NCBI GenBank assembly: GCA_965224245.1 | Contig: OZ245046.1 | Span: forward strand, 5,344,001 to 5,408,000 | Length of the DNA: 64,000 bases | Source: Candidatus Eiseniibacteriota bacterium | GTDB taxonomy: Bacteria > Eisenbacteria > RBG-16-71-46 > CAZAMP01 | Direction: 5' to 3' | Shown: positions 16,385 to 62,485 of the stretch, one piece after another | Position numbering within the stretch: position 1 is the first letter of the stretch | Layout of the letters: each line of letters opens with the position of its first letter | Translations under genes and position numbers: made by a program | Notes under the pieces: model-generated | Database searches by the model: none | What the model saw: only the letters and a program-made list of their open reading frames with translations | What the model was told of the DNA's origin: nothing

Positions 16385-17413
16385 ATGAGGTCGAGAGTCT
16401 CGATGCTCGTGTCGGTGGCCGTCGCCGCGTCGCTCGCGGCGGGCGACGCGCCGGCCGAGGTCGTCATCGAACCGGTCATGGGCGACGTCCAGCTCGACGT
16501 CGCCGAGGTGGAGTGCTCGGACTATCCATCGGGCTGCATGCTCTGCGTGAACGACGTCGACAACCCGGGTGACACCCGCCTGATCGTCGCGTGCGGGCAG
16601 CGGCTCCCCGGCGTCGCCACGTGGGCGAACGTTCAGGGCACCGTGCGCCCGTTCGTGGTGCTGGACGGCGTGGAGGTCACGCCGTCGCTGCTGCCGTTCG
16701 GCTCGCGCGTCCGGACCCGGCTGGGATGGCTCGATCGCGCGTATCCACCGAGCTGTCCCGGCGGCGTGCCCCCGGGGGTCACCTATGCGATCGGAGACGA
16801 TCCCACCCGCACCGTCACCGGTGACGGTGAGGCGACGGTCGAGGTCGACGCGGGGTTCGGGGACGTCATTCCGTTCACGTTCGACGTCTGCAGCCAGTTC
16901 GTGTGGTGGGGCGTGGGGTGCGACATCGCGGGCTCGCAGTCGTATCGATGGTCGTTCCTCGCGCCCGAGGTTCCGCGCGCGTTCGCGCTCGCGGCCGGCG
17001 ACGCCGAGCCGATCTCGCTGCCCGGGGACGGGATCCTGCTGGACGTCCTCGACTCACCGGGTGGAGCGGTCACGATCACGCGCGTCGACGCCGAGCCGCC
17101 GGCGGGGCCGGCGTTCGTCGGGGCGCCGGGGTACTGGGACGTCGAAACCGACATGCCCTCGGGGTCGTACTCGGCACGGGTCGAGCTGAGCTTCGACGTG
17201 GGGACGCTCCCCGCGGAGGCCGAGCCGTCGGAGCTGGTGATCGCGGTCTACGACCCGTCGCGGGATCGCTGGGAGTCGCTGGAGACGACGCTCGATCTGG
17301 ATCTCGGCCTGGCCGGTGCGACCACCGAGCGGCTGTCGATGTTCATCGTGACCATGCCGCCGGCGGTCCCGGTGGAGACGCTCTCGTGGGGATCGTTGAA
17401 GGCGACGTACTGA
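16385..17413 (+). CDS. Exported Cys-containing hypothetical protein with short C-terminal tail
   Basis: GAGG RBS; signal peptide; C-terminal beta domain (YDPSRDRWESLET..TERLSMF); ends PVETLSWGSLKATY. Confidence 0.8.
   Translation: MRSRVSMLVSVAVAASLAAGDAPAEVVIEPVMGDVQLDVAEVECSDYPSGCMLCVNDVDNPGDTRLIVACGQRLPGVATWANVQGTVRPFVVLDGVEVTPSLLPFGSRVRTRLGWLDRAYPPSCPGGVPPGVTYAIGDDPTRTVTGDGEATVEVDAGFGDVIPFTFDVCSQFVWWGVGCDIAGSQSYRWSFLAPEVPRAFALAAGDAEPISLPGDGILLDVLDSPGGAVTITRVDAEPPAGPAFVGAPGYWDVETDMPSGSYSARVELSFDVGTLPAEAEPSELVIAVYDPSRDRWESLETTLDLDLGLAGATTERLSMFIVTMPPAVPVETLSWGSLKATY
17369..17413 (+). other. Short C-terminal motif, copy 2 (PVETLSWGSLKATY*)
   Basis: Shared tail motif. Confidence 0.75.
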
Positions 17414-21504: not shown

Positions 21505-21570
21505 TCAGTCGGAGGCGCTACCGCGATAGAGCGCCTTGACGCGACTCCACGTGCTGACCTCGACGAGCGG
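21505..21570 (-). other. Short C-terminal motif, copy 3 (PLVEVSTWSRVKALYRGSASD*)
   Basis: Shared tail motif. Confidence 0.75.
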
Positions 21571-22209
21571 GTCGGCGCACGAGGTGCCGCAGGCCACGTG
21601 CCCGCCGGGGCCGTCGACCTCGACGTCGCCCCAGCCGAGGTGGGCCCGGCAGATCTCGAACGTGGTCGGCAGGCAGTCCGCGACCAGGGCGATGCCGCCG
21701 ATGCGGGGATCCCCGGCCGCGCGAAGGAAGCCCGGTCCCCCCGAGCGGACGCTGAAGAAGCCGATCTTCGTGACGCCGTCGTCGTTGTCGGTCACGAGAT
21801 AGCACCCGTCCGACCAGGTGACGGCGTTTCCGGAGCCCGACGCGGGCCACGCCACGGGCTCGACCTGGGGGATCTCGGAGCCTCCGGTGCACAGCGTCCA
21901 GCCGTACAGGTCCAGCGACGGGACGTACTCGATCCCGAACTGGATGCCGCCGATGCCTCCCGACACGCCCGGTCCCGCGCCGACCGGAACCCCGCCCACG
22001 ACGAGCTCGGCGAAGTTCGGCGTGAGCTCGCCGAGGTCGAGGATCTCGGCGTCGATGCGATCGCAGGCCAGGTTGCCGTCCGCGACGACCGAGTCGTTAC
22101 AGCCCGAATAGGATGGGGCGATGAACATGACGTCGATGGAGTAGCTGTCGACGGCGTGTGTCGTGCCGACGGCGATCGGGATCAGGAGAAACGCAAGGGG
22201 TGCCTTCAT
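21505..22209 (-). CDS. Exported Cys-rich hypothetical protein with short C-terminal tail; paralog of 61754-62485
   Basis: Signal peptide MKAPLAFLLIPIAVGTTHA; FGIEY..WPASGSG core; ends PLVEVSTWSRVKALYRGSASD. Confidence 0.8.
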   Translation of the reverse strand: MKAPLAFLLIPIAVGTTHAVDSYSIDVMFIAPSYSGCNDSVVADGNLACDRIDAEILDLGELTPNFAELVVGGVPVGAGPGVSGGIGGIQFGIEYVPSLDLYGWTLCTGGSEIPQVEPVAWPASGSGNAVTWSDGCYLVTDNDDGVTKIGFFSVRSGGPGFLRAAGDPRIGGIALVADCLPTTFEICRAHLGWGDVEVDGPGGHVACGTSCADPLVEVSTWSRVKALYRGSASD

Positions 22210-28061: not shown

Positions 28062-28075
28062 TGCGAGTGACTCCT

Positions 28076-28555
28076 TCAGGATCCGAGGACGAGTCGTCGT
28101 GACCCGTTGGTAACCGTGGCCGACGTCGGCGTGACGTCTCTCACGGTCCATCCTCTGAACGTCTCACCTATGCGCAGCCACCCCGAGGTGACGTCGCCCA
28201 ACGTCAGCTGAATGCTCGGGCTGACGGTGTCGTACAGGAGCGCGCGCAACGTGGGATCGGGTACGACGACCGGCAGCTCCACACGGGGCGCCGGCCGCTT
28301 CTTCTTCACCGGGGGTCGGGGCGGCGGCTGGAACGGATCCCGCGTGTCGACACGCGCCGACGCGATCAGGCTGTCCCGGAGCGCCAGCTCCTCGAGACCA
28401 TCACGAGCCGGTGCCTCGAGCGCGGGCAATGCGTCGCTCTTGACCGAGAGCACCGCCGCGATCGTGGTCTCGAATCGAAGACACAGAACGACGACCGCCG
28501 CGATGGCGACGGCGAACGCCAGCCACTGAGGTCGTTCCTGGGTCGAGATCGCCAT
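28076..28555 (-). CDS. PilP/GspC-like alignment protein
   Basis: Position between pilO and secretin; TM helix, RDPF motif, Pro-rich linker, HR-like beta domain (LRIGETFRGWTV). Confidence 0.6.
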   Translation of the reverse strand: MAISTQERPQWLAFAVAIAAVVVLCLRFETTIAAVLSVKSDALPALEAPARDGLEELALRDSLIASARVDTRDPFQPPPRPPVKKKRPAPRVELPVVVPDPTLRALLYDTVSPSIQLTLGDVTSGWLRIGETFRGWTVRDVTPTSATVTNGSRRLVLGS

Positions 28556-29079
28556 CACATGGCCTCCGCGCTGACCGGGTCGTAGATCGAGATGTTGAAG
28601 CGGTTCTCGACCGACCGGCTGTCCGCACGCTTGACGACGAGCGCGTCGATGCTGGCCAGCCGCGCGCCCTCCTCCAGCATGCGGACGAAGTCGAGCGTGC
28701 GTTCGTAGCTGCCCTGAAGTCGGACCGTGAAGCGCGCCCGCCGGTACGATCCGATGCGGCCCGAGTCGCCGGCGGTGAGCTCGAGCTGCGTGAGCCGAGC
28801 GGCCTTGACCATCGAGGCCACGTAGGTCAGGGGATCCTCGCCGGTCAGGGTCGCCAGCTGGGTCAGATCGTCCACCTCCAGGAACTGCGCGAGCCGCTTG
28901 CTCCGTCGTTCCCGCTCGCTGGCCTCGGTCAGCTTCTCGAGGAGCTCCGCACGCTGAGCGGCCAGGCGCTTCACCGTCCGGAGCTGAGGCTGCGTGAAGG
29001 CGACGTCGATGACGGCACAGGCCACGAGCGGCAGGACGATGGCGACGAGAGCGCGTATGGGGATGAGCTGCCTGGACAT
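28555..29079 (-). CDS. pilO: PilO-like protein
   Basis: TM + coiled coil + ferredoxin-like domain (VRLQGSY...LDFVRMLE); synteny. Confidence 0.7.
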   Translation of the reverse strand: MSRQLIPIRALVAIVLPLVACAVIDVAFTQPQLRTVKRLAAQRAELLEKLTEASERERRSKRLAQFLEVDDLTQLATLTGEDPLTYVASMVKAARLTQLELTAGDSGRIGSYRRARFTVRLQGSYERTLDFVRMLEEGARLASIDALVVKRADSRSVENRFNISIYDPVSAEAM

Positions 29080-29080
29080 G

Positions 29081-29647
29081 TCATCCTCCGTCCCGACCCG
29101 CCGGGGTCGCTCGGCAAGAGATCTCGAACTCGCTGTCGGATCCGCCCTTCAGCACGCCGAGGGTGACGCTGGGAAACACACGTGCGATCCGTCGATCCTC
29201 TCGCAGCGCCTCCATGAACGCCGACACGTCCTCGACCGACGTCCGGTCACGATCGACTCGACCTTCGATCGACAGGGTCGCGGGTGACTTCCGCCACGCC
29301 GCCGAGCCCGACACCCGTTCGAGCCGCATCGACGTGCCGACGTTCGTCGCGATCGCGGCGAGAGCCGGGGACCAGTCCACTCGACCGGCCCGGAGCTCGA
29401 GCACCTCGCCGGCCAGCGCGATCTCCGGATGCGCCGAGGGCGTCGACTCGACCCGACTCGACAGGCGCTCGATGGCCGTTCTCAGCGTTCGCGCCTGCTC
29501 GTTCAGGAGCACACCGCTGAGGGCCAGCGAGAACGCCAGAAGCACCTCGACCGTGACCAGCGCCAGGACCGCGGTTCGTCGCGCCGCGTTCCGGCGTCCA
29601 CGAAGCCGGTTCTCGGCGAACTCGGGATAGAAGTTGATCCTATACAA
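29081..29647 (-). CDS. pilN: PilN-like protein
   Basis: N-terminal INF (INLL-like PilM-binding) motif, TM, coiled coil, LSIEG..VSAFMEAL. Confidence 0.7.
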   Translation of the reverse strand: MYRINFYPEFAENRLRGRRNAARRTAVLALVTVEVLLAFSLALSGVLLNEQARTLRTAIERLSSRVESTPSAHPEIALAGEVLELRAGRVDWSPALAAIATNVGTSMRLERVSGSAAWRKSPATLSIEGRVDRDRTSVEDVSAFMEALREDRRIARVFPSVTLGVLKGGSDSEFEISCRATPAGRDGG

Positions 29648-30623
29648 CGGGGTCGTCCCACCACCTGCACAGTCCGCAAGCTACTACGAAGCGTGATCCA
29701 CACTCCGACACGTCGTGATATCCAACCCCCGACTCGCCGACCTCCTCGAGGGGGTCGAGCCCGGAGACGGGTTGCTCTAACTTCTGTCGGAGGAAATCGA
29801 GGGAACCTGAGAGCAAGCTCCCACCGCCGATCAAGAACACCGCTCCGACCTCCTGCCGGTGCCGGCCGCGGTAGAACGTCATGGTCTCCTCGGTGCGACG
29901 GGCGACCCCGGACAGGAACGCGTCCACGCTGGTTCCGTTCTCGGTGGCCGCGGACCCGGGGCCGATGTGTCGACTCAGGAAGCCGGCGTCCCGATGAGCG
30001 ATGTGAATGGACGTCTGGCGACCGCCGACGTCCAGGACCGCGATCGCCTCGTCTCCACGCCCGGCCCCGGACGCGATCGCCTGGTTCAGCGCCGACAGTG
30101 GCTCCAGATCCACGACCTCCGGCTCGAGCCCGGCGCCCGCCAGCACGCTCACCGCGAAGTCGCGCCGCGCCCTGGGGATCGCCGCGAACAGGGCCCGGCT
30201 CTGCGGCGGCAGGCCATCGGCTCCGTCGGACGTGCGGCCGAGCAGCTGCGACGTCACCAGCGGGGTGTCCATGTCGTCCAGATCGAGGTGCTTCTTGGCC
30301 TCGAACCGCGTCGACGCCTGAAGCTCCTTCGCGTCGACGGGGGGGATGACCACCTCGCGCACGCGGACGTCCGCGCCGCCGACGGCGACGGCGACGTGCC
30401 CCAGGTCCCGCTTCACGAGGCCTAGACGCTGAAGGACCGTGCGCAGCGCCTCGGTCGCGCGCTCGGTGTCGGTTCCGGACCCGTCGACGTTCCACTCCTC
30501 GAGGCCGACGTGCGAGATGCGTTCGAGCCTGGACGTCCCCTCGGCACGCACGAGCTTGACGCCGACCGTGCCCAGGTCGATCCCCGTGCGGACTCCCGAA
30601 CCGCGTCCCATCATTCGAAACAA
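29640..30623 (-). CDS. pilM: PilM (actin/FtsA-like) pilus assembly protein
   Basis: GIDLGTVGVKLV, AVLDVGG..T, FLIGGGS..G, FVVACGLC; GAGGAGG RBS before TTG. Confidence 0.85.
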   Translation of the reverse strand: MFRMMGRGSGVRTGIDLGTVGVKLVRAEGTSRLERISHVGLEEWNVDGSGTDTERATEALRTVLQRLGLVKRDLGHVAVAVGGADVRVREVVIPPVDAKELQASTRFEAKKHLDLDDMDTPLVTSQLLGRTSDGADGLPPQSRALFAAIPRARRDFAVSVLAGAGLEPEVVDLEPLSALNQAIASGAGRGDEAIAVLDVGGRQTSIHIAHRDAGFLSRHIGPGSAATENGTSVDAFLSGVARRTEETMTFYRGRHRQEVGAVFLIGGGSLLSGSLDFLRQKLEQPVSGLDPLEEVGESGVGYHDVSECGSRFVVACGLCRWWDDPVV

Positions 30624-30633
30624 CCCGACCTCC

Positions 30634-31959
30634 TCAGCTGCTTGCGCTGGGCATCTCCCGCCACTTGAGAACGCGAAGCGTTCCCGAGACCCCGTCGGCC
30701 CAGTCGTCGACCAGGTATCCGGGAAGATGCTCGATGAATCCCCTGTCGAACACGATGTGCGGCGATCCGGTGCTGTTCCAGTCCCCGAGCACGACGAACG
30801 CCCCGTAGAGCTCGAAGTTGGAGTTCACACCGACGACGTCCCTCGTGATGTAGATGAGGGCCGGATAGTCCGGCGAGCCGATCTGCGTGTGCGAGCCGCC
30901 CACCTTCTGGAAGTCGCGAGCGATGAGCGCGATGCCGCGGTAGGGCTCGAAGATGATCTGGCGAACGGTCGTGAGGCCTCCCATCCAGAAGGCCTCGTCC
31001 GAGCGCTGCTCCTCGGTGACTCCGGTGAAGCGCGCGTTGACGATCGTGGCATTCACGACGGTCGAGCTCGAACCGTCGAAGATCAGGTTCGCGGTCGCGT
31101 TGACCCCGGGAGGATCGATCGCCGCCGCCTCGCCGAAGTTGACCACGACCGCGACGTCCCCGGCCGTGCGTCTGAACACACCCGTCGCGTCGTCGAAGTA
31201 GTGCTGGATCTCGGCGTGACTGTCGAAGTCGAAGGTGAACAGCTCCTGGCCGGCGTTGTAGCTCGTGACGTCGACGAGGCTGTCCCCGAGGGCGGTCGTG
31301 ATGTCGATCCCGTCGCGATCGAAGATGCGTGCCTGTGCCGTTCCCCCGATCCGGGTACCCCGGACGTAGTAGTACGTCGCGTCGGGGAAGTGGTCGGGGT
31401 CGGTGTAGATCGGGGGCGGGGTCACCTCGAAGTCCGACGTGTAGTCGCCACACGTGAGGTGGACGTCCGACGGGCCGAAATCGGCATCCCCGACCACGTG
31501 GGCGGTGCCCTCGAGGCAGAAGTCTCCGCCGACGTCGGCGTCGCCGAGGACGAGTATCCCCAGCCCGTAGGCGGTGGGCGGAACCACCGCGAAGACCTCG
31601 ATGGCTCGCCTGGCGATGCCGACCCGCCCGGTGGAGAGGACGTGCACGACGTCCTCGGCTCCCGGATACGTGGTGTCGGTCACCGCCACGTCGTAGGTGC
31701 CGGCACCCAGCGAATCCGCCGACCATCCATCGCGCCACGTCCGGTCCTCGAGGAACTTGCCGCGGGTGCGCTCCAGTCCGGCATCGGCCAGATAGAACGC
31801 GCTGCTCGAGTTCTGGCGATAGATGGCCCCCTTGGTCTCGTATGCGGAGACGGCGAAGAAGGACATCCCCATGAGCACGATGACCAGCGTGAACACCACG
31901 ACGGTCACGAGCGCGTAGCCGCCATCGCCACCGGCGGTCGTTCGACGAGGGGTGGTCAT
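30634..31959 (-). CDS. PilX/GspK-like large minor pilin
   Basis: G|YALVTVV class III signal lacking Glu5; AFYLADAGLE. Confidence 0.75.
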   Translation of the reverse strand: MTTPRRTTAGGDGGYALVTVVVFTLVIVLMGMSFFAVSAYETKGAIYRQNSSSAFYLADAGLERTRGKFLEDRTWRDGWSADSLGAGTYDVAVTDTTYPGAEDVVHVLSTGRVGIARRAIEVFAVVPPTAYGLGILVLGDADVGGDFCLEGTAHVVGDADFGPSDVHLTCGDYTSDFEVTPPPIYTDPDHFPDATYYYVRGTRIGGTAQARIFDRDGIDITTALGDSLVDVTSYNAGQELFTFDFDSHAEIQHYFDDATGVFRRTAGDVAVVVNFGEAAAIDPPGVNATANLIFDGSSSTVVNATIVNARFTGVTEEQRSDEAFWMGGLTTVRQIIFEPYRGIALIARDFQKVGGSHTQIGSPDYPALIYITRDVVGVNSNFELYGAFVVLGDWNSTGSPHIVFDRGFIEHLPGYLVDDWADGVSGTLRVLKWREMPSASS

Positions 31960-31973
31960 CTCGAGGTCCTTCT

Positions 31974-32456
31974 CTAGAATTCGAAGCTCTGGTTACGGAT
32001 CGCCGCGCGCGTCTTTCCGCCGACGCGAAATCCGTACGAGTCCTCGAACTCGACCGTGATCGTCAGACTCGTGGTGTCGTCGTCCGCGTCGCATCGAAAG
32101 CGGGTACAGACGCGGTCCACGAGGTTGATTCCGTCTTCCTGAAGCCGGTACTGACCCCCGACGAGCGCCGCCCGGTAGGTGTGGACCAGCGCGCCGGTCT
32201 CGTCGTAGGTGCTGAACTCGGTGGAGTCGACGACGGCGATCGTCCTGGCCGCCCGGATCGATCTGGCCATCCACTCGAGAGCCTCGGTCGTGTTCTGCTG
32301 GAGAACCGCCTTGTCGTGTCCGGAGCGCCAGGACGACTGGCTGGACAGAACGATCCGGCCCAGCACCAGGACGACGAAGAGTCCGATCACCAGCGCGACG
32401 GTCAGCTCCACGAGCGTGTAGCCGCGGTGGGCGCGACGGGGCGCCGGCGTCGTCAT
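31974..32456 (-). CDS. PilW/GspJ-like minor pilin
   Basis: RG|YTLVELTVALVI prepilin motif; M.RSIR.A. Confidence 0.75.
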   Translation of the reverse strand: MTTPAPRRAHRGYTLVELTVALVIGLFVVLVLGRIVLSSQSSWRSGHDKAVLQQNTTEALEWMARSIRAARTIAVVDSTEFSTYDETGALVHTYRAALVGGQYRLQEDGINLVDRVCTRFRCDADDDTTSLTITVEFEDSYGFRVGGKTRAAIRNQSFEF

Positions 32457-32869
32457 GGCATTCCTCGCGCCAGGATCGTCGTGGTCGACAGGTCCCGGGT
32501 GATGCTCGAGCCACCGACCAGGGCGCTCCAGCTGACGGTCACCCCGACCGTGGTGGTCTGATCTTCCGGAGTGCCGGCGGTCACCTCGTGGGAGACGACG
32601 TACGGTCGGTTGTCGACCACCAGGGTGGTGTCGGTTCCGTCCAGCAGCGGAAGGTCGTCATAGCGGAAGTCTCGCCGGATCCCGTCCAGACGAGCCTGAG
32701 CGACCTCGGTGGCCTTCCGCCGATCCTCCTCGTAGCCCAGCTGTCGCCGTCCACGGCTGTAGATCTGGGCCAGCCCGAAGAAGACGATGAGAAGCAGCAC
32801 GGCCGCGATGAGAATCTCGAACAGCGTGAAGCCGCCGTCCGATCGCCGACGCGGGGAACTTCGCCTCAT
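32453..32869 (-). CDS. PilV/GspI-like minor pilin
   Basis: GG|FTLFEILIA prepilin motif; A.EVAQARLD; VTVSW. Confidence 0.75.
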   Translation of the reverse strand: MRRSSPRRRSDGGFTLFEILIAAVLLLIVFFGLAQIYSRGRRQLGYEEDRRKATEVAQARLDGIRRDFRYDDLPLLDGTDTTLVVDNRPYVVSHEVTAGTPEDQTTTVGVTVSWSALVGGSSITRDLSTTTILARGMP

Positions 32870-32902
32870 CTGACCGCTCGCTTCCGATGAACGTGAGGCA
32901 CC

Positions 32903-32924
32903 GGGGCGAGGGTTCCCCCGCCCC
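32903..32924 (-). other. GC-rich stem-loop between pilA and the minor pilins
   Basis: Minus strand GGGGCGGGG-GAA-CCCTCGCCCC, no U tail. Confidence 0.5.
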
Positions 32925-32940
32925 AGGGCACCTCGACTCA

Positions 32941-33375
32941 CTACAGTCCGGTCACGACCGGTGCCTGTCCGTTCGAGTTGATGTTGGGTATCGTCACCAC
33001 CAGCGTGACACCCTCCATCTTTCCGCCCGGGATGCCGGTCGCCGTGATCACGAGCGCGGTCGATGTCGCGTCGGCGCCGCCGCCGCCGGTGATCGCGTAG
33101 TTGAACTCCGCGCTCGGGTTCAGGTCCACGATTCCACCCGCGCCCGCGGGCCACGTGGGATTGCCGGCCGCGTCCTGGTTCTCCTGCGCCCAGGCCTTCG
33201 ACGCGGTGACGATCTCGCCGATGCGTCCCGTGGCCTCGGAGATGCGCGCGTTCTTGATGTACTTGCCGTAGATCGGGATCGCGATGGCGGCGAGGATGCC
33301 GACGACCACGACCACGACCATGAGCTCGATCATGGTGAAGCCCTTCCGACCGGGCCTGCGACGGTAACGGAGCAT
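32941..33375 (-). CDS. pilA: Type IVa major pilin
   Basis: KG|FTMIELMVVVVVVGILAAIAIP.Y..Y...AR.SEA; AGGAGG RBS. Confidence 0.85.
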   Translation of the reverse strand: MLRYRRRPGRKGFTMIELMVVVVVVGILAAIAIPIYGKYIKNARISEATGRIGEIVTASKAWAQENQDAAGNPTWPAGAGGIVDLNPSAEFNYAITGGGGADATSTALVITATGIPGGKMEGVTLVVTIPNINSNGQAPVVTGL

Positions 33376-33463
33376 GTCAAGACCTCCTGTTGCCCGAGTA
33401 GTCGGGCGCCCTGTTTCCAGTCGTTGCGGCATCGAATCGTGCGCCGCGCTCGCCTGCAAAACG

Positions 33464-34708
33464 CTAGTAGTTGTATCCACCCTTCATGATTGCGTCGCCG
33501 AGCTGGAAGATCGGCAGGAACATTGCGACCACGATGATTCCGATCAGACCACCCACGAGGATGATCATGAGCGGCTCGATGAGCGACGAGATGGAGTGCA
33601 CGGAGGCTTCCACCTGCCGGTCGTAGAAGTCCGACGATTTGATCAACATCGCATCGAGGTTGCCGGCGTCCTCGCCGGTCGCCATCAGCTGAAGCGTCAT
33701 CTCCGGGAACGCGCCGGAAGCGCGAAACGACTCGGTGATGCCTCGACCGGACGCGATGCGCTCCTTCGCGTCGCCGATCGCCCGGGCGACGACGGAGTTG
33801 CCGGCCGCTCCCTTGACCAGCTCGAGGGCCTCCAGGATGGGGAGGCCACTGGCCAGCAGAATGCCGAACGTCCGGGCGAACCGGCTCATGACCGACTTGC
33901 GGACGATCGGTCCGAAGATCGGGAGCCTCAGGAGAGCCGCGTCCATGGCGTACCGCCCCCCACGCGTCCGGATCAGGAGTCCGAACACCAGGACGATCCC
34001 GACCGCCGCCGCGATGGACAGAAGCGCGTTCGACCGGATGAAGTTGGAGGCGACCACGATCTTCTGCGTCAGCAGCGGCAGCTCCTGTCCGAAGTCGGCG
34101 TAGATGTCCGCGAACGTGGGGACGATCTTGAGCAGGAGGAAGAGCGTGACGAGGATCGCGAAGCCGAGGACCATCACCGGGTACGCGAGCGCGGCACGGA
34201 CCTTGGTACGGATCGCGTCGACCTTCTCCAGGTAGACGGCCAGCTGATCGACGATCTGCTCCATCGTCCCCGCCCGCTCGCCGGCGCGGATCATGCTCAG
34301 GTACATGCGGCCGAACGCTTCCGGATGGCTGCCCATCGCGTCCGACAGGCTCTCGCCGCGCTCGATCCGGAGCGCGATGTCGTCGAGTGCCCGCGCGAGC
34401 ACGGGGCTGGTGGTGTCGCCGGCGAGTCCACGCAGCCCGCGCACGAGCGGCAGCCCGGCCTCCAGGACCGTGGCGAACTGCCGGCTGAACAGCGCCAGCT
34501 CGCGCGTACCAACCCGGCCGAACGAGATTCCGGCCAGCCGCTTCTGCCAGGTCTGCTGCGATCGACCGCCCGTGTCCTCGGCGAGATGCAGGACCGCCAG
34601 ACCCTGCGCGTGCAGCTGGCTCACGGCGTCGTCGATGGTGTTCCCCTGAAGGAACCCGCTGACTTCCTCGCCCTGCTGACTGCGTGCTACGTAGGCAAAA
34701 CTACCCAT
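33464..34708 (-). CDS. pilC: Type IV pilus platform protein (PilC/GspF)
   Basis: FSRQFATVLEAGLPL, MIRAGERAG, LIEPLMI..GIIVVAMFLPIF. Confidence 0.92.
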   Translation of the reverse strand: MGSFAYVARSQQGEEVSGFLQGNTIDDAVSQLHAQGLAVLHLAEDTGGRSQQTWQKRLAGISFGRVGTRELALFSRQFATVLEAGLPLVRGLRGLAGDTTSPVLARALDDIALRIERGESLSDAMGSHPEAFGRMYLSMIRAGERAGTMEQIVDQLAVYLEKVDAIRTKVRAALAYPVMVLGFAILVTLFLLLKIVPTFADIYADFGQELPLLTQKIVVASNFIRSNALLSIAAAVGIVLVFGLLIRTRGGRYAMDAALLRLPIFGPIVRKSVMSRFARTFGILLASGLPILEALELVKGAAGNSVVARAIGDAKERIASGRGITESFRASGAFPEMTLQLMATGEDAGNLDAMLIKSSDFYDRQVEASVHSISSLIEPLMIILVGGLIGIIVVAMFLPIFQLGDAIMKGGYNY

Positions 34709-34736
34709 CGGATCCTCGTCGTTTCCGCGTTTCCGA

Positions 34737-36557
34737 TCAGTCGTCGCTCGAGCAGACGCGCACGACCTCTTCCAGCGTGGTCGTGCCCTCTCGAACCTTC
34801 TCGAGCCCGGCGTTGCGAAGGGTCGTCATTCCCTGCTGAAGGGCCAGCTCCCGGATCTCACCCGCCGGCCGTCCGTCGGCGATGAGCTGTCGCAGCCCCG
34901 GTGTCATCGTCATCCGTTCGATGATCGCGATCCGCCCCCGGTAGCCGCGTCCCTTGCAGGCGGCGCAGCCCTTGCCCCGGAGAAACCGCATGGGTTCACC
35001 GTTCGACGTGATCAGCTCGTGATCGCGAACGGCGAACCGCATCTCCTCGCTCGGCTCGTACTCCTCCAGGCAGTGCTCACAGCTTCGCCGGATGAGCCGC
35101 TGCGCCGCGACCATCGTGAGGGCGCTGGCGGCCATGAACGGCTCGATGCCCATCGAGACGAGACGCGTCGCCGTCGTGGGTGCGTCGTTCGCGTGAATCG
35201 TGCTGAAGACCATGTGCCCGGTCAGCGCCGCGCGAATGGCGATGTCGGCCGTCTCCTGGTCGCGGATCTCACCGACCATGATCACGTCGGGATCCTGACG
35301 GAGGAACGAGCGGAGCGCCGTGGCGAACGTGAGGCCCTTGCGCACGTTGACGGGCACCTGGTTGATGCGCGAGATCTGGTACTCGACGGGATCCTCGACG
35401 GTCGTGATGTTGATCGCGTCGCTACGAAGCTCGAGCAAGCTGGCGTACAGCGTCGTGGTCTTGCCGGACCCCGTGGGGCCGGAGAGAAGCACCATCCCGT
35501 ACGGATGGTGAATCGCGTCCACGAACGCGCGGTGATCGGCCTCCGAGAAGCCGAGATCCCGCAGCGAGAAGCTGAAGTTGGTCTTGTCGAGAAGACGCAG
35601 CACGAGCTTCTGCCCGTGGAGGGTCGGGATCGCCGAGACGCGGATGTCGACCTCGCGACCGCGGCTCCGGTGCGTGAACCGACCGTCCTGAGCCATGCGT
35701 CGCTCGGCGATGTCCATGTCGGCGAGGATCTTGATGCGGCTGGCGGCGCCGGTGTAGACGGCCTTCGGCGGCGTCAGCGCGTCGTAGAGGAGCCCGTCCA
35801 CCCGGTATCGGATGACCAGCTCGTGCTCCTGTGGCTCGACGTGGATGTCCGTTGCGCGTTCCTGGAGGGCCTGCGTGATGATCTGATCCACGAGGTGGAT
35901 GACGCCCGCGTCCTGTGCGTGGCGCTGGGCTTCGTCCTCGTCCGGCTCGTCGCCGATGCTGACGATCTCGATCTCGTCGATCACCTCGTCGATCAGCCGG
36001 GTCACCGTGCGGGAGCTCTCGATGAGGGCGTACTTGCTCTCGCGTGCCTCGTCGAGCACGTGGGCCGGCGCGATCAGGATCTCGAGCCCGAGGTCGGCTC
36101 GCGTCGCGACGCGCTGAAGGTGGTCGAGCGTCTCCACGTCGAGGGGGTCTTGCATCGCCACCGTGAGCGTGCCGTCGTCGACGCGTACGGGGAGCAGCCC
36201 GTGGCGTCGAGCCACGTCGAGCGAGATCAGCTCCAGCGCAGCGGGCTGAACCTCGTCCTGCGCGGGATCGAACAGCCGGTGGCCGAGCTGCTGCGAGAGC
36301 ACCTCGAGCACGTCGTGTTCGGAGATGTATCCCTGGCGCTTGAGGATCTCGCCGACGCGCTCACGCGTTCCGGATTGCTCCGAGAGCGCATCCTCGAGCT
36401 GCGAGGCCGAGATGCGTCCGCGCGTGACGAGCAGCTTTCCGATTGGGCTGAGCTTCGACACCTGTCCTTCCACCCCGACCACGACGTCGGCGGCGGGCGC
36501 CGACGCTTCGAGCCGGTTCTCGGGTGAGCCAACGTCCGATTTGCCGCTATCGCCCAC
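34737..36557 (-). CDS. pilB: Type IV pilus assembly ATPase (PilB/GspE) with N-terminal MshEN-like domain
   Basis: ATDIHVEP, QDGR, GPTGSGKTTT, TVEDPVEY, LRQDPDVIMVGEIRD, GHMVFSTIH, CEHC/CAAC. Confidence 0.92.
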   Translation of the reverse strand: MGDSGKSDVGSPENRLEASAPAADVVVGVEGQVSKLSPIGKLLVTRGRISASQLEDALSEQSGTRERVGEILKRQGYISEHDVLEVLSQQLGHRLFDPAQDEVQPAALELISLDVARRHGLLPVRVDDGTLTVAMQDPLDVETLDHLQRVATRADLGLEILIAPAHVLDEARESKYALIESSRTVTRLIDEVIDEIEIVSIGDEPDEDEAQRHAQDAGVIHLVDQIITQALQERATDIHVEPQEHELVIRYRVDGLLYDALTPPKAVYTGAASRIKILADMDIAERRMAQDGRFTHRSRGREVDIRVSAIPTLHGQKLVLRLLDKTNFSFSLRDLGFSEADHRAFVDAIHHPYGMVLLSGPTGSGKTTTLYASLLELRSDAINITTVEDPVEYQISRINQVPVNVRKGLTFATALRSFLRQDPDVIMVGEIRDQETADIAIRAALTGHMVFSTIHANDAPTTATRLVSMGIEPFMAASALTMVAAQRLIRRSCEHCLEEYEPSEEMRFAVRDHELITSNGEPMRFLRGKGCAACKGRGYRGRIAIIERMTMTPGLRQLIADGRPAGEIRELALQQGMTTLRNAGLEKVREGTTTLEEVVRVCSSDD

Positions 36558-53835: not shown

Positions 53836-54939
53836 ATGCGACTCGGACCCACCGGCGCCTCGCTCGCGCGCGCCTCGGTGGCGATCTCCATCGCGATGAT
53901 CCCGATCGCGTCGCCGGCGATCGCGGAGATCCTCCTCGTCCGTCCCGACGGCACGGGCGATCACCCGACGATCCAGGCCGCGCTGGACGCGTCCCATCCC
54001 AGCGACATCATCGAGCTGGCCGACGGCATCTTCCGCGGTCCCGGCAATCGGGACGTCACGACGTCCGGCCAGAGCGCCACCCTCGTTCGTTCCGCGAGCG
54101 GAGATCCGAGCGCCTGCGTGATCGAGTGCGACGGGAGTCCCGCCGAGCCGCACCGCGCGTTTCTCGTCGTGGACGACTCGCTGTGGCTGGTGGGGGTGAC
54201 GATCCGGGGCGGCTACGCGAACGACCTCTTCGGAGGGGGCGCGATCGCGTCGCTGTCGTCCTGGCTACCCCTGGACGACTGCCGCTTCGTGGGCAACGAG
54301 TCCGCGACCGCGGGCGGCGCGCTGTCGATCATCGGGGAGACCGACTCGTTTCTGTCCGCCGAGCTCGCCGACTGCGTGTTCACCGGAAACCGAGCGGCAC
54401 GCGGCGGCGCGATCGCGGTCCAGGCGACCCCCACGATCGAGCGGTGCGTGATCACGGGCAACGTGGCCACCGAGTACGGCGGCGCGATCTTCGGAACGCG
54501 AACCGGAGCCGTGCGCGAGACGACGCTGGCAGGCAATCTCGGGGGCGTGGCCGGAGGGGGCGTTTACGTGACGGAATCGGTCGACGTCTTCCGGACGATC
54601 TTCTGGGCGAACTGCGCGCCGACCGGGGCGAGCGTGCAGCTCGAGGGGCCGGCGCGCGGGGGCGGCCGCATTCGTTGCTCGATCGTCCGGGCCGAGGACG
54701 TGGTCGGCGGCGTGGCCATCGACGACACGGACCGGGACGAGAATCCGCTCCTCTGCGATCCCCGGGCGTGTTCGGAGGCTCCGACCGACGCCGGCGACGC
54801 GGCGCTCGACGCCGCGTCGGTGTGCGTGGCCGAGCGGAGCCCGTGCGGCGAACGAATCGGCGCGCGTGGCGTCGCATGCTCGGGGACGACACCCGTTCTC
54901 CGGACGAGCTGGACTCGGATCAAGGCGTGCTACCGCTGA
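53836..54939 (+). CDS. Exported right-handed beta-helix (pectin-lyase-like) protein with short C-terminal tail
   Basis: Signal peptide; PTIQAALD; repeated F.GN.A..GGAI; NPLLC..SPC..IGA.G..C; ends PVLRTSWTRIKACYR. Confidence 0.85.
   Translation: MRLGPTGASLARASVAISIAMIPIASPAIAEILLVRPDGTGDHPTIQAALDASHPSDIIELADGIFRGPGNRDVTTSGQSATLVRSASGDPSACVIECDGSPAEPHRAFLVVDDSLWLVGVTIRGGYANDLFGGGAIASLSSWLPLDDCRFVGNESATAGGALSIIGETDSFLSAELADCVFTGNRAARGGAIAVQATPTIERCVITGNVATEYGGAIFGTRTGAVRETTLAGNLGGVAGGGVYVTESVDVFRTIFWANCAPTGASVQLEGPARGGGRIRCSIVRAEDVVGGVAIDDTDRDENPLLCDPRACSEAPTDAGDAALDAASVCVAERSPCGERIGARGVACSGTTPVLRTSWTRIKACYR
54892..54939 (+). other. Short C-terminal motif, copy 4 (PVLRTSWTRIKACYR*)
   Basis: Shared tail motif. 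Confidence 0.75.
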
Positions 54940-55027
54940 GTGGCGGGGCGACCGTTCATCGGACGTCGCCGTTCGAGCGGCTCGCGCGTGGCCGCTCGGG
55001 GAGCTGGCCGGCCCTGCTCGTCCCGGA

Positions 55028-55507
55028 TCACTGAAGGCCCGGCGGGTGCCCCAGGAGCCGACGCAGGATGCCCAGCTGACCGGTGTGGTACGTCTCGTGG
55101 AAGCAGAGCCCGACGAGCTGCTCGCCGCGCGTGGATCTGCCGTCCGGTGACGGCTCGTCGAATCGCGCCTCGCCGAATCCCGGAAGCACTTCGCCGAGCC
55201 GCCGCGTCGACACCGCCAGGTCGGCCAACATCTTCTCCACCTCGTGAACGCCCGGTCCTGCCTCGACGACGTTGGCGCTTCCGCGAACGTAGCGTGCCTT
55301 CTCCTCGTCGGACCAGATCGGCTCCAGCTCCACCAGCGCGTGCATCGGGTTTCGATGGAACACGATGTGGCCGAGGATCCAGTTGACGGTGTTGCCTCCC
55401 GGCTTCGGCGCGACCAGAGCCTCGGCGTCGGTGATGCCGTGCATGTTCCTGTCGATCGCGAACTCGTTGTATCGGAGCAGCGTTCGCACCTGTTCGGCCG
55501 TCGTCAT
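55028..55507 (-). CDS. DinB family protein
   Basis: AGGAGG RBS; NTVNWILGH and HETYHTGQ. Confidence 0.85.
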   Translation of the reverse strand: MTTAEQVRTLLRYNEFAIDRNMHGITDAEALVAPKPGGNTVNWILGHIVFHRNPMHALVELEPIWSDEEKARYVRGSANVVEAGPGVHEVEKMLADLAVSTRRLGEVLPGFGEARFDEPSPDGRSTRGEQLVGLCFHETYHTGQLGILRRLLGHPPGLQ

Positions 55508-55626
55508 CGGGACACCTCCTGCCGCCCCGACCGGCCCGGGGGCGGCTCGTTGACCGGCTCGGCGCCGGTTCAGTACGCTTTCCGTCCTCGATCCGGCACC
55601 GACCCCGAAGCACGAGGAGGCGAGCC

Positions 55627-57324
55627 GTGTGCTCGATTCTGGCCCTGTTCGAGCTCGCCGCCGACGCGGCGTCTCTTCGCCCGACGGTCCTCGAGCTGTC
55701 GCGCCGGATGCGGCACCGCGGCCCCGACTGGAGCGGCGTGGAGACCCGGCCGGACGCCATCCTGGCCCACGAACGCCTGTCGATCGTCGACGTGGTGCAC
55801 GGCGCACAGCCACTGGTGAGCGACGACGAGACCCGGATCCTGGCCGTGAACGGCGAGATCTACAACCATCGCGAGCTCCGGTCCGGACTGTCCCGGCCGT
55901 ACGCGTTTCGCACCGAGTCCGACTGCGAGGTCATCCTTCCGTTGTACGCCGAGCGCGGCACGGAGTTTCTGAACGACCTCAACGGCATCTTCGCGTTCGC
56001 GCTCTACGACGACGCGCGAAAGCGGTACGTCATTGCCCGCGATCCGATTGGCGTGGTCCCGCTCTACACCGGTCGCGACGAACGCGGGCAGCTCTACGTG
56101 GCCTCCGAGATGAAGGCGTTGATCGGCGTGTGTCGCACGATCGAGGACTTTCCGCCCGGTCACGTCTGGGACTCCGAGGTCGGGGAGCCGCGTCCATATT
56201 ACGCCCCCGTGTGGCGGGAGTACGAGGCCGTTCGCGGCGTGGACGCCGACGTGGATCGCCTCCGGCGCTCGCTGGAGGATGCGGTCAAGCGCCAGCTCAT
56301 GTGTGACGTCCCCTACGGCGTGTTGCTCTCGGGCGGGCTCGATTCGTCGCTGGTGAGCGCGCTGGCGGCCCGGCACACGCGCCGCCGGGTCGAGGAGGAC
56401 GAGCAGAGCGAGGCCTGGTTCCCGAGACTCCACTCGTTCGCGATCGGTCTCGAGGGCTCCCCCGATCTGGCGGCCGCTCGACGGGCCGCCGAGGCGATCG
56501 AGAGCGTCCATCACGAGCTTCACTTCACGGTGCAGGAGGGGCTGGATGCGCTCTCGGATGTGATCCATCACATCGAGACGTTCGACGTGACCACGGTCCG
56601 GGCCTCGACGCCGATGTACCTGATGGCCCGCCGCATCAAGGCGATGGGCATCAAGATGGTGCTCTCGGGCGAGGGTGCCGACGAGATCTTCGGCGGGTAC
56701 CTGTACTTCCACAAGGCGCCGAGCCCCGAGGAGTTCCACGCCGAGACGGTGCGCAAGCTCGACAAGCTCTACAAGTTCGACTGCCTCCGGGCCAACAAGT
56801 CGATGGCCGCCTGGGGTGTCGAGGCCCGCGTCCCCTTCCTGGATCGCGCGTTCCTCGACGTGGCCATGGGCTTCGACGCCGCGCACAAGATGGCCCGCAC
56901 GTCCGACGGCCGGCCCCGGATCGAGAAGCACGTGCTGCGTGAGGCCTTCGACGGCGAGGCGCTGCTTCCGCGCGAGATCCTGTGGCGGCAGAAGGAGCAG
57001 TTCTCCGACGGCGTCGGCTACTCGTGGATCGATTCGCTCCGCGCGTTCGCCGAGTCGCGAATCGGGGACGACGACTTCGCCCGCGCGCACCATCGCTTCC
57101 CGCAGAACACGCCGGCCACGAAGGAGGCGTACCTCTATCGCGAGATGTTCGAGCGGCACTTCCCGGGCACGGCGGCGGTGGACGTGATCCCCGAGGGACC
57201 GTCGATCGCGTGCTCGACGCCGACGGCGATCGCGTGGGATGCGTCGTTCCGGGATCATGCGGATCCGTCCGGCAGGGCCGTGCGGGGGGTGCATGTGGAT
57301 GCTTATCGGTCCGGGGACTCCTGA
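55627..57324 (+). CDS. asnB: Asparagine synthetase B (glutamine-hydrolysing)
   Basis: N-terminal Cys, HRGPDWSG, NGEIYNH, LSGGLDSS, SGEGADE, DPSGRAV. Confidence 0.95.
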   Translation: MCSILALFELAADAASLRPTVLELSRRMRHRGPDWSGVETRPDAILAHERLSIVDVVHGAQPLVSDDETRILAVNGEIYNHRELRSGLSRPYAFRTESDCEVILPLYAERGTEFLNDLNGIFAFALYDDARKRYVIARDPIGVVPLYTGRDERGQLYVASEMKALIGVCRTIEDFPPGHVWDSEVGEPRPYYAPVWREYEAVRGVDADVDRLRRSLEDAVKRQLMCDVPYGVLLSGGLDSSLVSALAARHTRRRVEEDEQSEAWFPRLHSFAIGLEGSPDLAAARRAAEAIESVHHELHFTVQEGLDALSDVIHHIETFDVTTVRASTPMYLMARRIKAMGIKMVLSGEGADEIFGGYLYFHKAPSPEEFHAETVRKLDKLYKFDCLRANKSMAAWGVEARVPFLDRAFLDVAMGFDAAHKMARTSDGRPRIEKHVLREAFDGEALLPREILWRQKEQFSDGVGYSWIDSLRAFAESRIGDDDFARAHHRFPQNTPATKEAYLYREMFERHFPGTAAVDVIPEGPSIACSTPTAIAWDASFRDHADPSGRAVRGVHVDAYRSGDS

Positions 57325-57374
57325 GGTCGGGGCGTTCGTACGGTGGGCACTCCCGGCTTTTCGGGGCGCGTTTC

Positions 57375-57518
57375 GGGGGCGACGGGGGTGGTGTCGTCTG
57401 CGCTCCGGCTGACGGCGTCGCCCTGCGACCGGTGGGGGGCATCATTCAGTGCGGGAGCGGCTTCGGGGGACACTCGTGTCGCATCAGTCGCTCCGACGAC
57501 ACCACCCCCGCCGCCCCC
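57375..57518 (+). repeat. ~144-bp REP/MITE-like palindromic element, copy A
   Basis: Terminal inverted repeats of 24 bp with one mismatch (perfect core CGGGGGTGGTGTCGTC, 57383-57398 / 57495-57510); homologous to copy B. Confidence 0.8.
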
Positions 57519-57756
57519 TCCGCGATCGAGGTCGGGGGCGCTTCCCGGTGCGTCGAGCGCGTGGGCATGTGACCCGCGCTTCGTCTCGTGGGTGTCGGGG
57601 AACGTGGCCACTTGCATCCACGAGCGGGTGTTACGGCACGGGGTTGGTGTGTCGTAGAATCACGCGTGCTGGGCGAGCGCCTGGGGGCATCAGCGCAGGC
57701 TCGCGTGTTCAGGTGGTGTCGGTCTCTGGGTCGCCGCCAGGCTCCGGCTTCGCCCG

Positions 57757-59013
57757 ATGGGAGAAGGCCATGGCTCGGCGCGCGTGGATGCGTGGGCTGG
57801 TCACGTGACGTTCGCACTGCCCGCCACGCCACGGGCCGACACGATCTCGGTTCCCGACTACGCGTCACTCACCGATGCTCTCGCGGCCGCCGCGTCCGGC
57901 GACACCGTCCTGGTCACGGCCGAGACCGTGCACGTCACGACCGATCAGATCGACATCCCGGCAGGTGTATGTCTCCGGAGCCTCAACGGCCGGGACGCGC
58001 ACACGATCTACGTGCCCCAGTACGGCATCAAGTTCGCCCCGGACGTGACGGACCCGGAACCCAGCATCCCCGAGGGGTTCACGATCCACGACGCCACCTC
58101 GGGTGCCTCGGTGAAGTTCCGCAACAATCCCGACGCGAGAGCCCTCGACAATCGCATCGTCAGCCTGGCAGGAGGTGCGTTTTCGGTCGGCGGCGGCGGG
58201 GGCGTCATTCACGGCAACGAGATGCTCTGTGCTCCTTTCGCCCTCGATCGGGCCCTGGACATCAATACCGGCGCCGAGACGTACCTCGAGATCTCATCCA
58301 ACGTGATCCTCTGCCCGGGTCTCGGTCTGTCCGTGTATGACGAAAAGGTAGGTTCCGCCTACGTCGAGTTCAGAAACAACACGATCGTTCACCCCGGCTA
58401 CGTCACGCAGGCCTGCAGCTGGTCCTTCGTGGACGACGTGATCGTGGTGTCCCACAACATCCTCTATGGGTTCTGGATCGACTGCTATGACCTGAGCGGC
58501 GGCGCAAGTGGCTTCAGCATGGACTACAACTGCATCTGGTTCTCGGGCTCGAGTCCTGAAACCGACTGTGATCTCTATTCTTGGCCCGGCAACTTCGAGG
58601 CGGATCCGCTCTTCTGTGACATCTCGGGACCGTCCTCGCTCGACCTCCGCCTCCGGCCCGACTCCCCGTGCCTCCACGGCGGCGAAGGGGGCTCCCTCAT
58701 CGGCGCTCTGGGTGCGGGCTGTGGCGTGGTCCACGTCGACGAAGCCGGCCGCGCGGCCACGAGTCTCGGTCTTCGTGTCATACCGGCTCCGGTGGTCGGA
58801 CGCGCATCCATCGCCTTCGACGAATCGCACGCCGGACGCTCCGCCTTCATCACGATCTACGACGTGACGGGCCGTCTCGTCGTCGAGCTCGAAGCCGAAC
58901 ACTCTCCCGTCACCTGGATCCGACGTGGCAAGGACGGTACCCCAGGTGTGTACTTCGTCGAGCTCAGAGCCAGCACGGGCGCCCGGAACGTCCAGCGAAT
59001 CGTCGCCAGATGA
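57757..59013 (+). CDS. Beta-helix exported-type protein with C-terminal FlgD-Ig/T9SS-CTD-like domain; probable frameshift in the signal peptide
   Basis: DYASLTDAL, NNTI, DYNCIW, GNFEADPLFC..DSPC..LIGALGAGC, IYDVTGRLV..PGVYFVEL; best RBS/ATG (57770) is out of frame. Confidence 0.7.
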   Translation: MGEGHGSARVDAWAGHVTFALPATPRADTISVPDYASLTDALAAAASGDTVLVTAETVHVTTDQIDIPAGVCLRSLNGRDAHTIYVPQYGIKFAPDVTDPEPSIPEGFTIHDATSGASVKFRNNPDARALDNRIVSLAGGAFSVGGGGGVIHGNEMLCAPFALDRALDINTGAETYLEISSNVILCPGLGLSVYDEKVGSAYVEFRNNTIVHPGYVTQACSWSFVDDVIVVSHNILYGFWIDCYDLSGGASGFSMDYNCIWFSGSSPETDCDLYSWPGNFEADPLFCDISGPSSLDLRLRPDSPCLHGGEGGSLIGALGAGCGVVHVDEAGRAATSLGLRVIPAPVVGRASIAFDESHAGRSAFITIYDVTGRLVVELEAEHSPVTWIRRGKDGTPGVYFVELRASTGARNVQRIVAR

Positions 59014-61753: not shown

Positions 61754-62485
61754 ATGCATCTCGAGCGACTCGCGCGACATGCGTACCCGATCGCCGCGCT
61801 CGTCTGGCTCACGGCCGCGGCGCACGCGGGTTCCCACGCCGCCGACGAGACCCCGCGGCTGTTGCTGCACTGGCCCACGGACGACTACGTGGGGCCGTGC
61901 ACCGAAGGCTTCGTGCCCGAGACCTGTGGCGACATGGACCCCAACACCCGGTACTCCGGACCGTTCTTCAACGGCTGGACCCTGGCCGCGCTCGATCTAC
62001 CCGAGCACCTGGCGTCGTACGAGCCACCGATCCGGGAGCTGTGGTTCGGCATCGAGTACGACGGCATCTTCTTCGACCAGGTCTGTCGCGTGGACGAGCT
62101 CGTGGGCACGGACGGAATCGAGGCACCGCCGTGGCCCGAGAGTGGAAGCGGCGTGACGCTGCGCTACGCCGCGCCCATCCTCGACGACGACGGCGACGGA
62201 CTGGTCCCGATCTGGGGCATGACGTTCCAGCCGCACTCGCAGGATCCAGCGGGCGATGCGCGACTGCGGATCGTGCCGCATCCCGTCCGGGAGACGGTCG
62301 GCTTCGTCGGCGGTGACGGGAACGAGTACCTGATCTGCGAAGACGTCCTCCCGATCCTGGATCTCCAGCTGTCCGAGACCGACCCGACCGGGAACGGTAC
62401 CAACCGATGCGAGGCGGGGTGCGCCACGCCGGTCCGATCCACGTCGTGGGCCCGGATTCGCTCGGCGTACCGGGTGCCGCAATAG
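61754..62485 (+). CDS. Exported Cys-containing hypothetical protein with short C-terminal tail; paralog of 21505-22209
   Basis: AGGAGGAGG RBS; signal peptide ending AAAHA; FGIEY..WPESGSG; ends PVRSTSWARIRSAYRVPQ. Confidence 0.8.
   Translation: MHLERLARHAYPIAALVWLTAAAHAGSHAADETPRLLLHWPTDDYVGPCTEGFVPETCGDMDPNTRYSGPFFNGWTLAALDLPEHLASYEPPIRELWFGIEYDGIFFDQVCRVDELVGTDGIEAPPWPESGSGVTLRYAAPILDDDGDGLVPIWGMTFQPHSQDPAGDARLRIVPHPVRETVGFVGGDGNEYLICEDVLPILDLQLSETDPTGNGTNRCEAGCATPVRSTSWARIRSAYRVPQ
62429..62485 (+). other. Short C-terminal motif, copy 5 (PVRSTSWARIRSAYRVPQ*)
   Basis: Shared tail motif. Confidence 0.75.

Follow-up and report, generated by a model that had tools for sequence, protein, structure and literature searches.

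We have examined a 64,000-nucleotide stretch of the genome of a Candidatus Eiseniibacteriota bacterium (the window; contig OZ245046.1, positions 5,344,001 to 5,408,000), and find that a Trp-containing tail of ~15 residues at the end of one of its genes (gene A) belongs to what is, judged from sequence comparison, a real and uncatalogued C-terminal module. This W tail terminates ~120 proteins, mostly unrelated to each other, whose N-termini resemble signal peptides. It occupies the position at which paralogs, such as gene B of the same window, carry the C-terminal domain (CTD) of type IX secretion systems (T9SS); it has replaced the CTD, or been replaced by it, several times; and both ends start with the same linker motif. 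The W tail looks like an undescribed address label, and very probably it serves, in the slot of the CTD, as a modular element for sorting or docking. More specifically, we tentatively favor, at somewhat less than an even chance, a compact and removable sorting mini-signal that would be read by T9SS-related parts in the CTD slot of small secreted proteins. A one-helix T9SS tag, if true, would overturn the rule that a T9SS signal must be a folded domain. One uncatalogued tag sits on ~2% of the genome's genes, mostly without a known family, and its definition would mark a large secreted proteome of uncultured phyla for annotation. Genes A and B themselves are ordinary distant paralogs, but natural tail-swap pairs elsewhere in the genome (52% identical, adjacent genes) and the 15-residue length of the tag make the question directly testable.

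The window corresponds to G000:C1:5344001-5408000 of a 6.9 Mb source genome (97% complete). Those relatives of gene A that bear names are mostly labelled Candidatus Eisenbacteria. The features of the two genes are as follows:

53836..54939, + strand: gene A, 367 aa, with a Sec-type signal peptide, a right-handed beta-helix, a Cys box and the W tail
53836..53925, + strand: gene A signal peptide, residues 1-30, ending in A-I-A, as read from the sequence
53926..54735, + strand: gene A beta-helix passenger, including the PTIQAALD cap helix, as modelled; best fold match Rhombotarget A 9CDU (E=3.3e-4)
54736..54879, + strand: gene A Cys box, which closes the passenger (residues 301-348), by profile alignment
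54889..54936, + strand: gene A W tail, with the linker motif T-P-V (352-354), then S-W-x-x-I-K-x-x-Y-R
57757..59013, + strand: gene B, 418 aa if started at ATG 57757 and 402 aa if started at GTG 57805, with a beta-helix, a Cys box, a linker and a T9SS type A CTD
58597..58722, + strand: gene B Cys box, residues 281-322, by profile alignment
58723..58749, + strand: gene B linker, its V-H-V (Cys+3 to Cys+5) matching T-P-V of W tails in register
58783..59010, + strand: gene B T9SS type A CTD, by TIGR04183 and model fold matches

The open reading frames (ORFs), Cys boxes, caps and tails of both genes lie where the first-pass annotation of the window had placed them. Both passengers are modelled as right-handed beta-helices, with a mean predicted local distance difference test score of 77 for A and 83.6 for B, and a scan against Pfam and NCBIfam gave Chlam_PMP/POMP repeats and a weak Beta_helix match in A. 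Gene A ends in C348-SGTTPVLRTSWTRIKACYR (pattern T-P-V-x3-S-W-x-x-I-K-x-x-Y-R), and residues 359-366 of its tail are modelled as a short helix within a low-confidence part of the model. Gene B ends in C322-GVVHVDEAG, followed by an 86-aa domain that passes the TIGR04183 cut-off (23.7 bits against 23) and falls under that of PF18962 (20.7 bits against 27). The model of this domain resembles solved T9SS CTDs, namely those of PorZ, PorU, mirolase and the translocon-bound substrates 8GLK and 8GL8 (fold matches 5M11, root-mean-square deviation 2.4; 8QB1; 6ZA2; 8GLK; 8GL8), and by this predicted fold it is a T9SS type A domain with the Ig-like fold of PorZ, PorU and RgpB.

Across the genome, ~120 proteins carry the W tail and 476 carry a CTD as recognized by a self-built profile. 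With a position matrix for the tail, 126 ORFs score above 20, and in 121 of these the match lies within 30 residues of the stop. The seed set of the matrix had required Pro, and the count was therefore repeated without that requirement on 4988 self-called genes, which gave 118 matches in the last 30 residues and 12 elsewhere, a ~120-fold C-terminal enrichment. A DNA pattern for the tail gave 87 matches against 1 for the reversed control. The Trp was kept in 100 of 100 tails when it was not required by the search, Pro occupies the sixth position before it (W-6) in 110/118 tails of this genome, and proteins end 8-26 residues after it. Arg stands at the Lys position of the tail in 12/102 cases, and an obligatory role of this Lys as transpeptidation acceptor is therefore unlikely. 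No Pfam or NCBIfam model covers the tail in gene A, in a third W-tail gene nearby or in 40 further W proteins, drawn at random from 98 outside the A/B family; 30 of these 40 lack any Pfam match. An ESM Atlas search with the tail returned one match at 0.78 and was uninformative, and no description of the tail was found in the literature searched, a coverage that largely leaves out subscription journals.

The proteins that carry the tail are distinctive. Signal-peptide-like N-termini were recognized by a hydropathy rule in 87/115 W proteins and 303/439 CTD proteins, as against 1601/4434 other genes, and a hydropathy scan found a downstream transmembrane segment in 0/115 W proteins. The median W passenger has 212 aa, and none of 115 exceeds 600 aa, whereas 213/439 CTD passengers do; these lengths rest on starts from a self-made gene caller, which were checked. 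Among relatives of B, 12 W proteins reach at most 518 aa and 20/82 CTD proteins exceed 650 aa. One W ORF, in L058, spans up to 1086 aa as measured from stop to stop. Cys makes up 2.6% of W cargo and 0.9% of CTD cargo. Where domains were recognized in W passengers, they included ones common on surface proteins: LTD, DNRLRE, choice-of-anchor X, Calx-beta, GEVED and Omp28. We also observed W tails on a multihaem cytochrome c and an AhpC/TSA protein (L323 and L326; G000:C1:712130-712771 and 4156967-4157389), which hints at redox proteins among the cargo.

Such passengers bear on the idea that the tail is an amphipathic tether, comparable to the C-terminal helices of PBP5, MinD and FtsA, that holds exported proteins at the membrane or the lipopolysaccharide surface; a switch from CTD to W tail would in that case relocate a surface protein to the envelope. 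The helix is indeed amphipathic (mean hydrophobic moment 0.36) and basic (+1.9), and the multihaem cytochrome c, the AhpC/TSA protein and a PD40 propeller are typical periplasmic types. However, the interfacial partition energy comes to only about -1.2 kcal/mol for eight residues, the Trp is never exchanged for Phe or Leu (100/100), and a lipid anchor needs no conserved linker motif at a fixed distance. We consider a tether improbable.

The first-pass annotation had treated the passengers of A and B as homologous, and they are, at a distance. BLASTP of A against B is not significant (E=1.1). A jackhmmer search from A with tails removed collected 60 ORFs (28 with a CTD, 18 with a W tail, 14 other) and reached B in round 3 (E=1.6e-11), while the same search started from B did not reach A, and a homolog search for B by shared words returned B alone. 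Family profiles of A and B aligned by hhalign at 99.6% probability (E=2.3e-24, 259 columns), and at 97.9% after removal of the Cys box. By these profile comparisons A and B are true but distant paralogs, homologous at the profile level only, and they belong to different subfamilies. Among 38 full-length relatives of B, 31 carry a CTD, 3 a W tail and 4 neither. A 5014-aa CTD protein elsewhere in the genome (G000:C1:1238737-1253814) contains many tandem beta-helix/Cys-box units like the passengers of A and B (34 matched stretches).

Tail type was mapped onto two trees of the passenger. The first comprised 31 paralogs in which the Cys box touches the tail (18 W, 13 CTD); 15 CTD rows with intervening domains, one short W fragment and 13 untailed rows were left out. 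It implies 8 tail changes against 10.2 for shuffled labels (55/500 shuffles as low), and a single W clade is rejected by the approximately unbiased (AU) test (p=0.0019). Most of its branches are long and unsupported, and its sole well-supported split, which forces only 2 changes, parts A from B. The second tree added 33 relatives of B, for 64 rows, and its bootstrap is not fully settled; it implies 11 changes against ~20.5 shuffled, at least 3 of them forced, and a single W clade is again rejected (AU p=0.0002). B falls within a clade of 25 rows that all carry a CTD. A direct tail swap between A and B is thereby rejected: the two lie in different subfamilies, and this pair itself is therefore not a swap. 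Five W-tailed relatives of B (P0073, P0091, P0099, P0104 and P0145) have a longer spacer and a CTD-like linker before the Trp helix, and could represent young switches from CTD to W tail.

Both ends also occur at a common junction in at least four other passenger families, and in two of these the genes are neighbors: a pair at C1:4291911-4295094 that is 52% identical over 324 aa, and a pair at C1:1439552-1441766. A recent transplant of tail DNA between unrelated passengers was looked for and rejected, the best of 6871 pairs agreeing at 38/48 bases. The two ends exclude each other: 0/126 W ORFs of this genome also carry a CTD, and among 114 ORFs of the A/B family in 80 GTDB loci (41 W, 37 CTD, 26 other or partial, 10 open) none has both. 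The trees thus indicate that tail type is inherited within subfamilies and has also been switched repeatedly. The repeated switching and mutual exclusivity that the first-pass annotation had named as tests, and the common junction that it had noted, were all borne out and support the modularity of the tails. Its word "interchangeable" was too strong: subfamilies pass on their tail type, the clade that holds B carries CTDs only, and W cargo is limited in size and rich in Cys.

The junction itself is shared. Counted from the last Cys, both classes favor Thr at +3, Pro or a small residue at +4 and Val at +5, and the linker motif [TVI]-[P/G/S/A/D]-V occurs in 53/70 W members (shuffles 36.7) and 76/100 CTD members (shuffles 46.4), with none of 500 shuffles as high in either class. 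Orthologs of two conserved W proteins were followed in family f6 of the phylum, where the tail is kept in 29/29 complete ORFs with Val or Thr five residues before the Trp. Their W-6 residue is D in 8, G in 6, A in 5, P in 5, S in 2, K in 2 and H in 1, close to the S/A/G/D make-up of CTD linkers. Pro as a universal cleavage block is therefore rejected, being present in only 5/29 orthologous tails and in 7/76 CTD linkers. A lamin-tail-domain W protein encoded beside smpB (L371:5225-5875; G000:C1:3204225-3204875) occurs in 20/21 f6 genomes, almost invariably as a single copy, and all 19 complete copies retain the tail; we regard it as core W cargo and a suitable test substrate.

According to a review (PMC5445135), the cut site of the Porphyromonas gingivalis sortase PorU has a polar or acidic residue next to a small one. 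The linker motif resembles such a site by analogy, and if it is one, the Trp helix would lie on the discarded side, as a signal would. The shared motif leans towards the same machinery for both ends.

The same linker could be taken to mean that the tail is what truncated CTD genes left behind, or that the pattern arose by chance, in either case without a sorting role. The tail does start with the CTD linker motif, and a scan of metagenomes for a long-spacer form of the tail, with a Poribacteria-type pattern, gave one hybrid (L192), in which the long-spacer W motif occupies the linker slot directly before a T9SS-type CTD. It is the only hybrid among the 128 matches listed, of which 127 are terminal. 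Against a remnant stand the ~120-fold C-terminal enrichment, the retention of the tail in 29/29 orthologs in genomes that have few tails, and its occurrence across the phylum. This reading is extremely improbable and already largely refuted.

A further possibility is that the tail is a docking peptide, which stays uncleaved and fastens small proteins, in the manner of dockerins or of type B CTD/PorP pairs, to a partner for co-secretion or display; the partner would be a carrier with a CTD or a scaffold at the surface. The invariant Trp and the Val-to-Trp spacing, fixed within this lineage, speak for docking, as does the restriction to small cargo; the Pro at W-6 could block cleavage; CTD genes neighbor W genes in 50/230 slots against ~9% expected; and homologs with the same passenger in Planctomycetota-labelled genomes end, by eye, in dockerin-like tails. 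However, the linker motif precedes the Trp helix, which puts the helix on the side that PorU would remove, the Pro is absent from 24/29 orthologous tails, and no partner family was seen by eye to recur among 302 W-gene neighbors beyond kinases, sigma factors and transposases. Nor was a PorP/SprF-family partner gene found over cut-off in the genome, one weak match lying below it and the control being silent. Docking is in our estimation unlikely, yet far from negligible.

The genome encodes SprA, and it encodes PorU (469 bits against a cut-off of 420) beside a PorV-family gene. Seven PorV-family genes exceed their cut-off, the PorV equivalog model stays under its own, and phmmer finds a single C25 peptidase. 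The tail pattern is present in 110/121 genomes of the phylum, a tally that includes the unpublished genome G015 (which bears on nothing else here), and all 11 blanks fall in f6. That f6 had lost the tail was considered and rejected, its tails being low in copy number and of a Pro-free variant instead: 16/18 residual matches and 29/29 orthologs are true tails. Since f6 is not a loss, a subtraction of PorV paralogs built on it is uninformative; no tail-less lineage was available among those examined to subtract against, and no candidate gene tracks the tail. SprA was found in 51/52 relatives, and PorU-like matches in 52/52, 42 of them over cut-off. Tails and SprA occur together in five genomes that were reached through named loci. 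Three genomes labelled Acidobacteriota or Planctomycetota have no SprA, with 6, 3 (control 2) and 0 tail matches. The first of these (G126, labelled Acidobacteriota) was rejected as a tail-positive, SprA-negative case: its 6 matches lie on short contigs, two of which also have CTD-like matches, and 15 relatives have 0-1. We infer that they come from mis-binned contigs.

Several loci around this machinery drew our attention. In L007:3919-17925 (G000:C1:2561916-2575925), the genes behind porU and porV encode two DUF5683 proteins, an NHL protein, a 1071-aa weakly SprA-like protein and an Omp85/POTRA protein. The porU-porV pair occurs in 18/18 fetched loci, a DUF5683 gene in 17 and the SprA-like gene in 14, the remainder reaching the end of the locus; by this gene order, the genes behind porU-porV are possibly T9SS parts not yet known. 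In L370:5894-11377 (G000:C1:4765894-4771377), a PorV-family gene with a FlgD domain, ~50% identical to its counterpart in genus g13, precedes genes for a 1015-aa TPR protein and an ExbB/ExbD pair, which we put forward as a candidate energizer, GldL and GldM having given no match. Loci L008 and L009 hold two PorV-family genes next to TonB-dependent receptors and CTD-like proteins.

The tail might instead be the address for a parallel export route, either a type II-like secretin system or a dedicated outer-membrane channel, not so far recognized, for small disulfide-rich cargo. The size cap and the Cys content would fit such a route; this genome has three secretins and 53/53 genomes have at least one; uncharacterized barrels beside porU-porV (the 1071-aa SprA-like protein and an Omp85 protein) are conserved; and seven PorV-family genes exceed their cut-off. 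A parallel route leaves unexplained why the T9SS-type linker motif is kept in register, and no candidate gene tracks the tail among the lineages examined, none of which was found to have lost it. To our knowledge, type II systems do not read a linear terminal peptide. We judge a parallel route rather improbable.

Under the favored reading, that of a mini-signal read by T9SS-related parts, W cargo would be exported by Sec and form its disulfides in the periplasm. The short helix S/T-W-x-x-I-K-x-x-Y would bind a protein groove of T9SS-related machinery, either a PorV-family barrel or an adaptor. The cargo would then cross the outer membrane through SprA and be cut at the linker by PorU, which would release or anchor it. 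A wider proposition, doubtful though possible, is that Eisenbacteria and related phyla have a T9SS without the known GldKLMN motor and with two signal classes, a folded CTD that serves cargo of whatever size and a linear peptide of 15 residues that serves small disulfide-rich cargo, PorU cutting both at the shared linker motif.

Several observations weigh against the mini-signal reading. According to PMC11285876, characterized T9SS signals are folded beta-sandwiches of 67-88 residues from the cut site, whose intact fold is essential. The W tail shows no likeness to them, having 15 residues, one helix and no sandwich. SprA would not demand the size limit seen in W cargo. PMC5445135 describes PorU specificity as low, which weakens what can be drawn from the linker motif. 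The CTD linkers of this genome mostly have V/L/I where the P. gingivalis site has S/T/N/D, and W-6 is mostly Pro, so the cut site is an analogy only. Pro is unfavorable beside a protease cut site. GldL, GldM and GldN gave no match in the genome, but their controls were equally silent, and GldK was not searched for. One genome (G117; 91% complete, 220 contigs) has 64 tail matches and no SprA match. Finally, the tail is near-universal in the phylum, as are SprA, PorU and secretins, so that their co-occurrence fits a T9SS but does not discriminate it from a secretin route.

The N-terminus of gene B deserves separate mention. From its stated start the signal peptide is not convincing, signal-like residues being spread over two frames, and relatives of B have ~23 residues ahead of the mature start. 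A short frame overlaps the start region:

57770..57808, + strand: 12-codon frame preceded by a GGAG site and resembling a signal peptide's first half, not in frame with gene B, its stop overlapping GTG 57805

By this arrangement the signal peptide of gene B looks frameshifted, and B may be a gene that lost efficient export. An assembly error is not an obvious cause: no indel was found at this N-terminus in assembled contigs of runs X1-X3 (two samples, one study; X1 and X2 may be the source sample itself), which agree with the window. The split signal peptide is without effect on the family-level result. Frameshifted copies are common within the passenger family, several paralogs (G000:C1:39963-40476, 4838871-4840292 and 4938065-4939219) being likewise split over frames.

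Further features of the window are these:

55028..55507, - strand: DinB-family gene, between A and B and unrelated to them
55627..57324, + strand: asparagine synthase (glutamine-hydrolysing), between A and B and unrelated to them
61754..62485, + strand: the third W-tail gene nearby, with an unrelated passenger that has no Pfam or NCBIfam match
16403..17413, + strand: W-tail gene directly behind a CTD gene (12266-16219)
21505..22209, - strand: W-tail gene in which Leu replaces Pro at W-6, next to a CTD gene (19287-21383)

The window also holds a cluster like those of type IV pili and type II secretion (25627-36557, - strand), with two ATPases, a secretin, PilM, pilins and PilC/GspF.

Comparison with known systems places the parts of these proteins differently. 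The passengers share their fold, including the N-terminal cap helix, with parallel beta-helix proteins (PF13229, Chlam_PMP/POMP repeats; Rhombotarget A 9CDU, PL6 lyase 7DMK, Pel9A 1RU4), although they are only 11-18% identical to the solved structures; going by the models, an adhesin or glycan-binding role is as likely as lyase activity. Dockerins, which dock onto cohesins and have F-hand calcium loops and a duplicated helix, resemble the W tail in being modular, C-terminal and carried by diverse passengers, and the same passenger ends, by eye, in dockerin-like fashion in other phyla. The W tail differs in having neither the F-hand calcium loops nor the duplicated helix, and no scaffold was identified. 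The tripartite signals LPXTG, PEP-CTERM, GlyGly-CTERM and MYXO-CTERM, as described in 10.1101/2023.06.07.544157, are likewise short, C-terminal and present in many copies on unrelated proteins with signal peptides, and Rhombotarget A, the best fold match of gene A, is by name a rhombosortase target. Unlike them, the W tail has no transmembrane helix (0/115 by the hydropathy scan), and no dedicated cognate enzyme was found; phmmer detected a single C25 peptidase in this genome.

Two T9SS signals remain to be compared. The type B CTD with PorP/SprF partners (TIGR04131; reviewed in PMC10202324) likewise adds to type A a second signal class within one genome, and it probably stays uncut and depends on a partner; it is a domain that needs more than 200 residues and serves very large cargo. 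The W tail is far shorter and sits on small cargo, with no PorP gene over cut-off here and a silent control. From the type A CTD (TIGR04183/PF18962; FlgD_ig PF13860), which works with SprA, PorV and the sortase PorU and is the one borne by gene B, the W tail differs in being a single short helix of ~15 residues rather than a 7-stranded sandwich, in matching no CTD model, in being confined to cargo below 600 aa, and in a genome where GldL, GldM and GldN, like their controls, gave no match. It is like the type A CTD in occupying the same slot on homologous passengers, in starting with the same linker motif, and in occurring in genomes that encode SprA, PorV and PorU.

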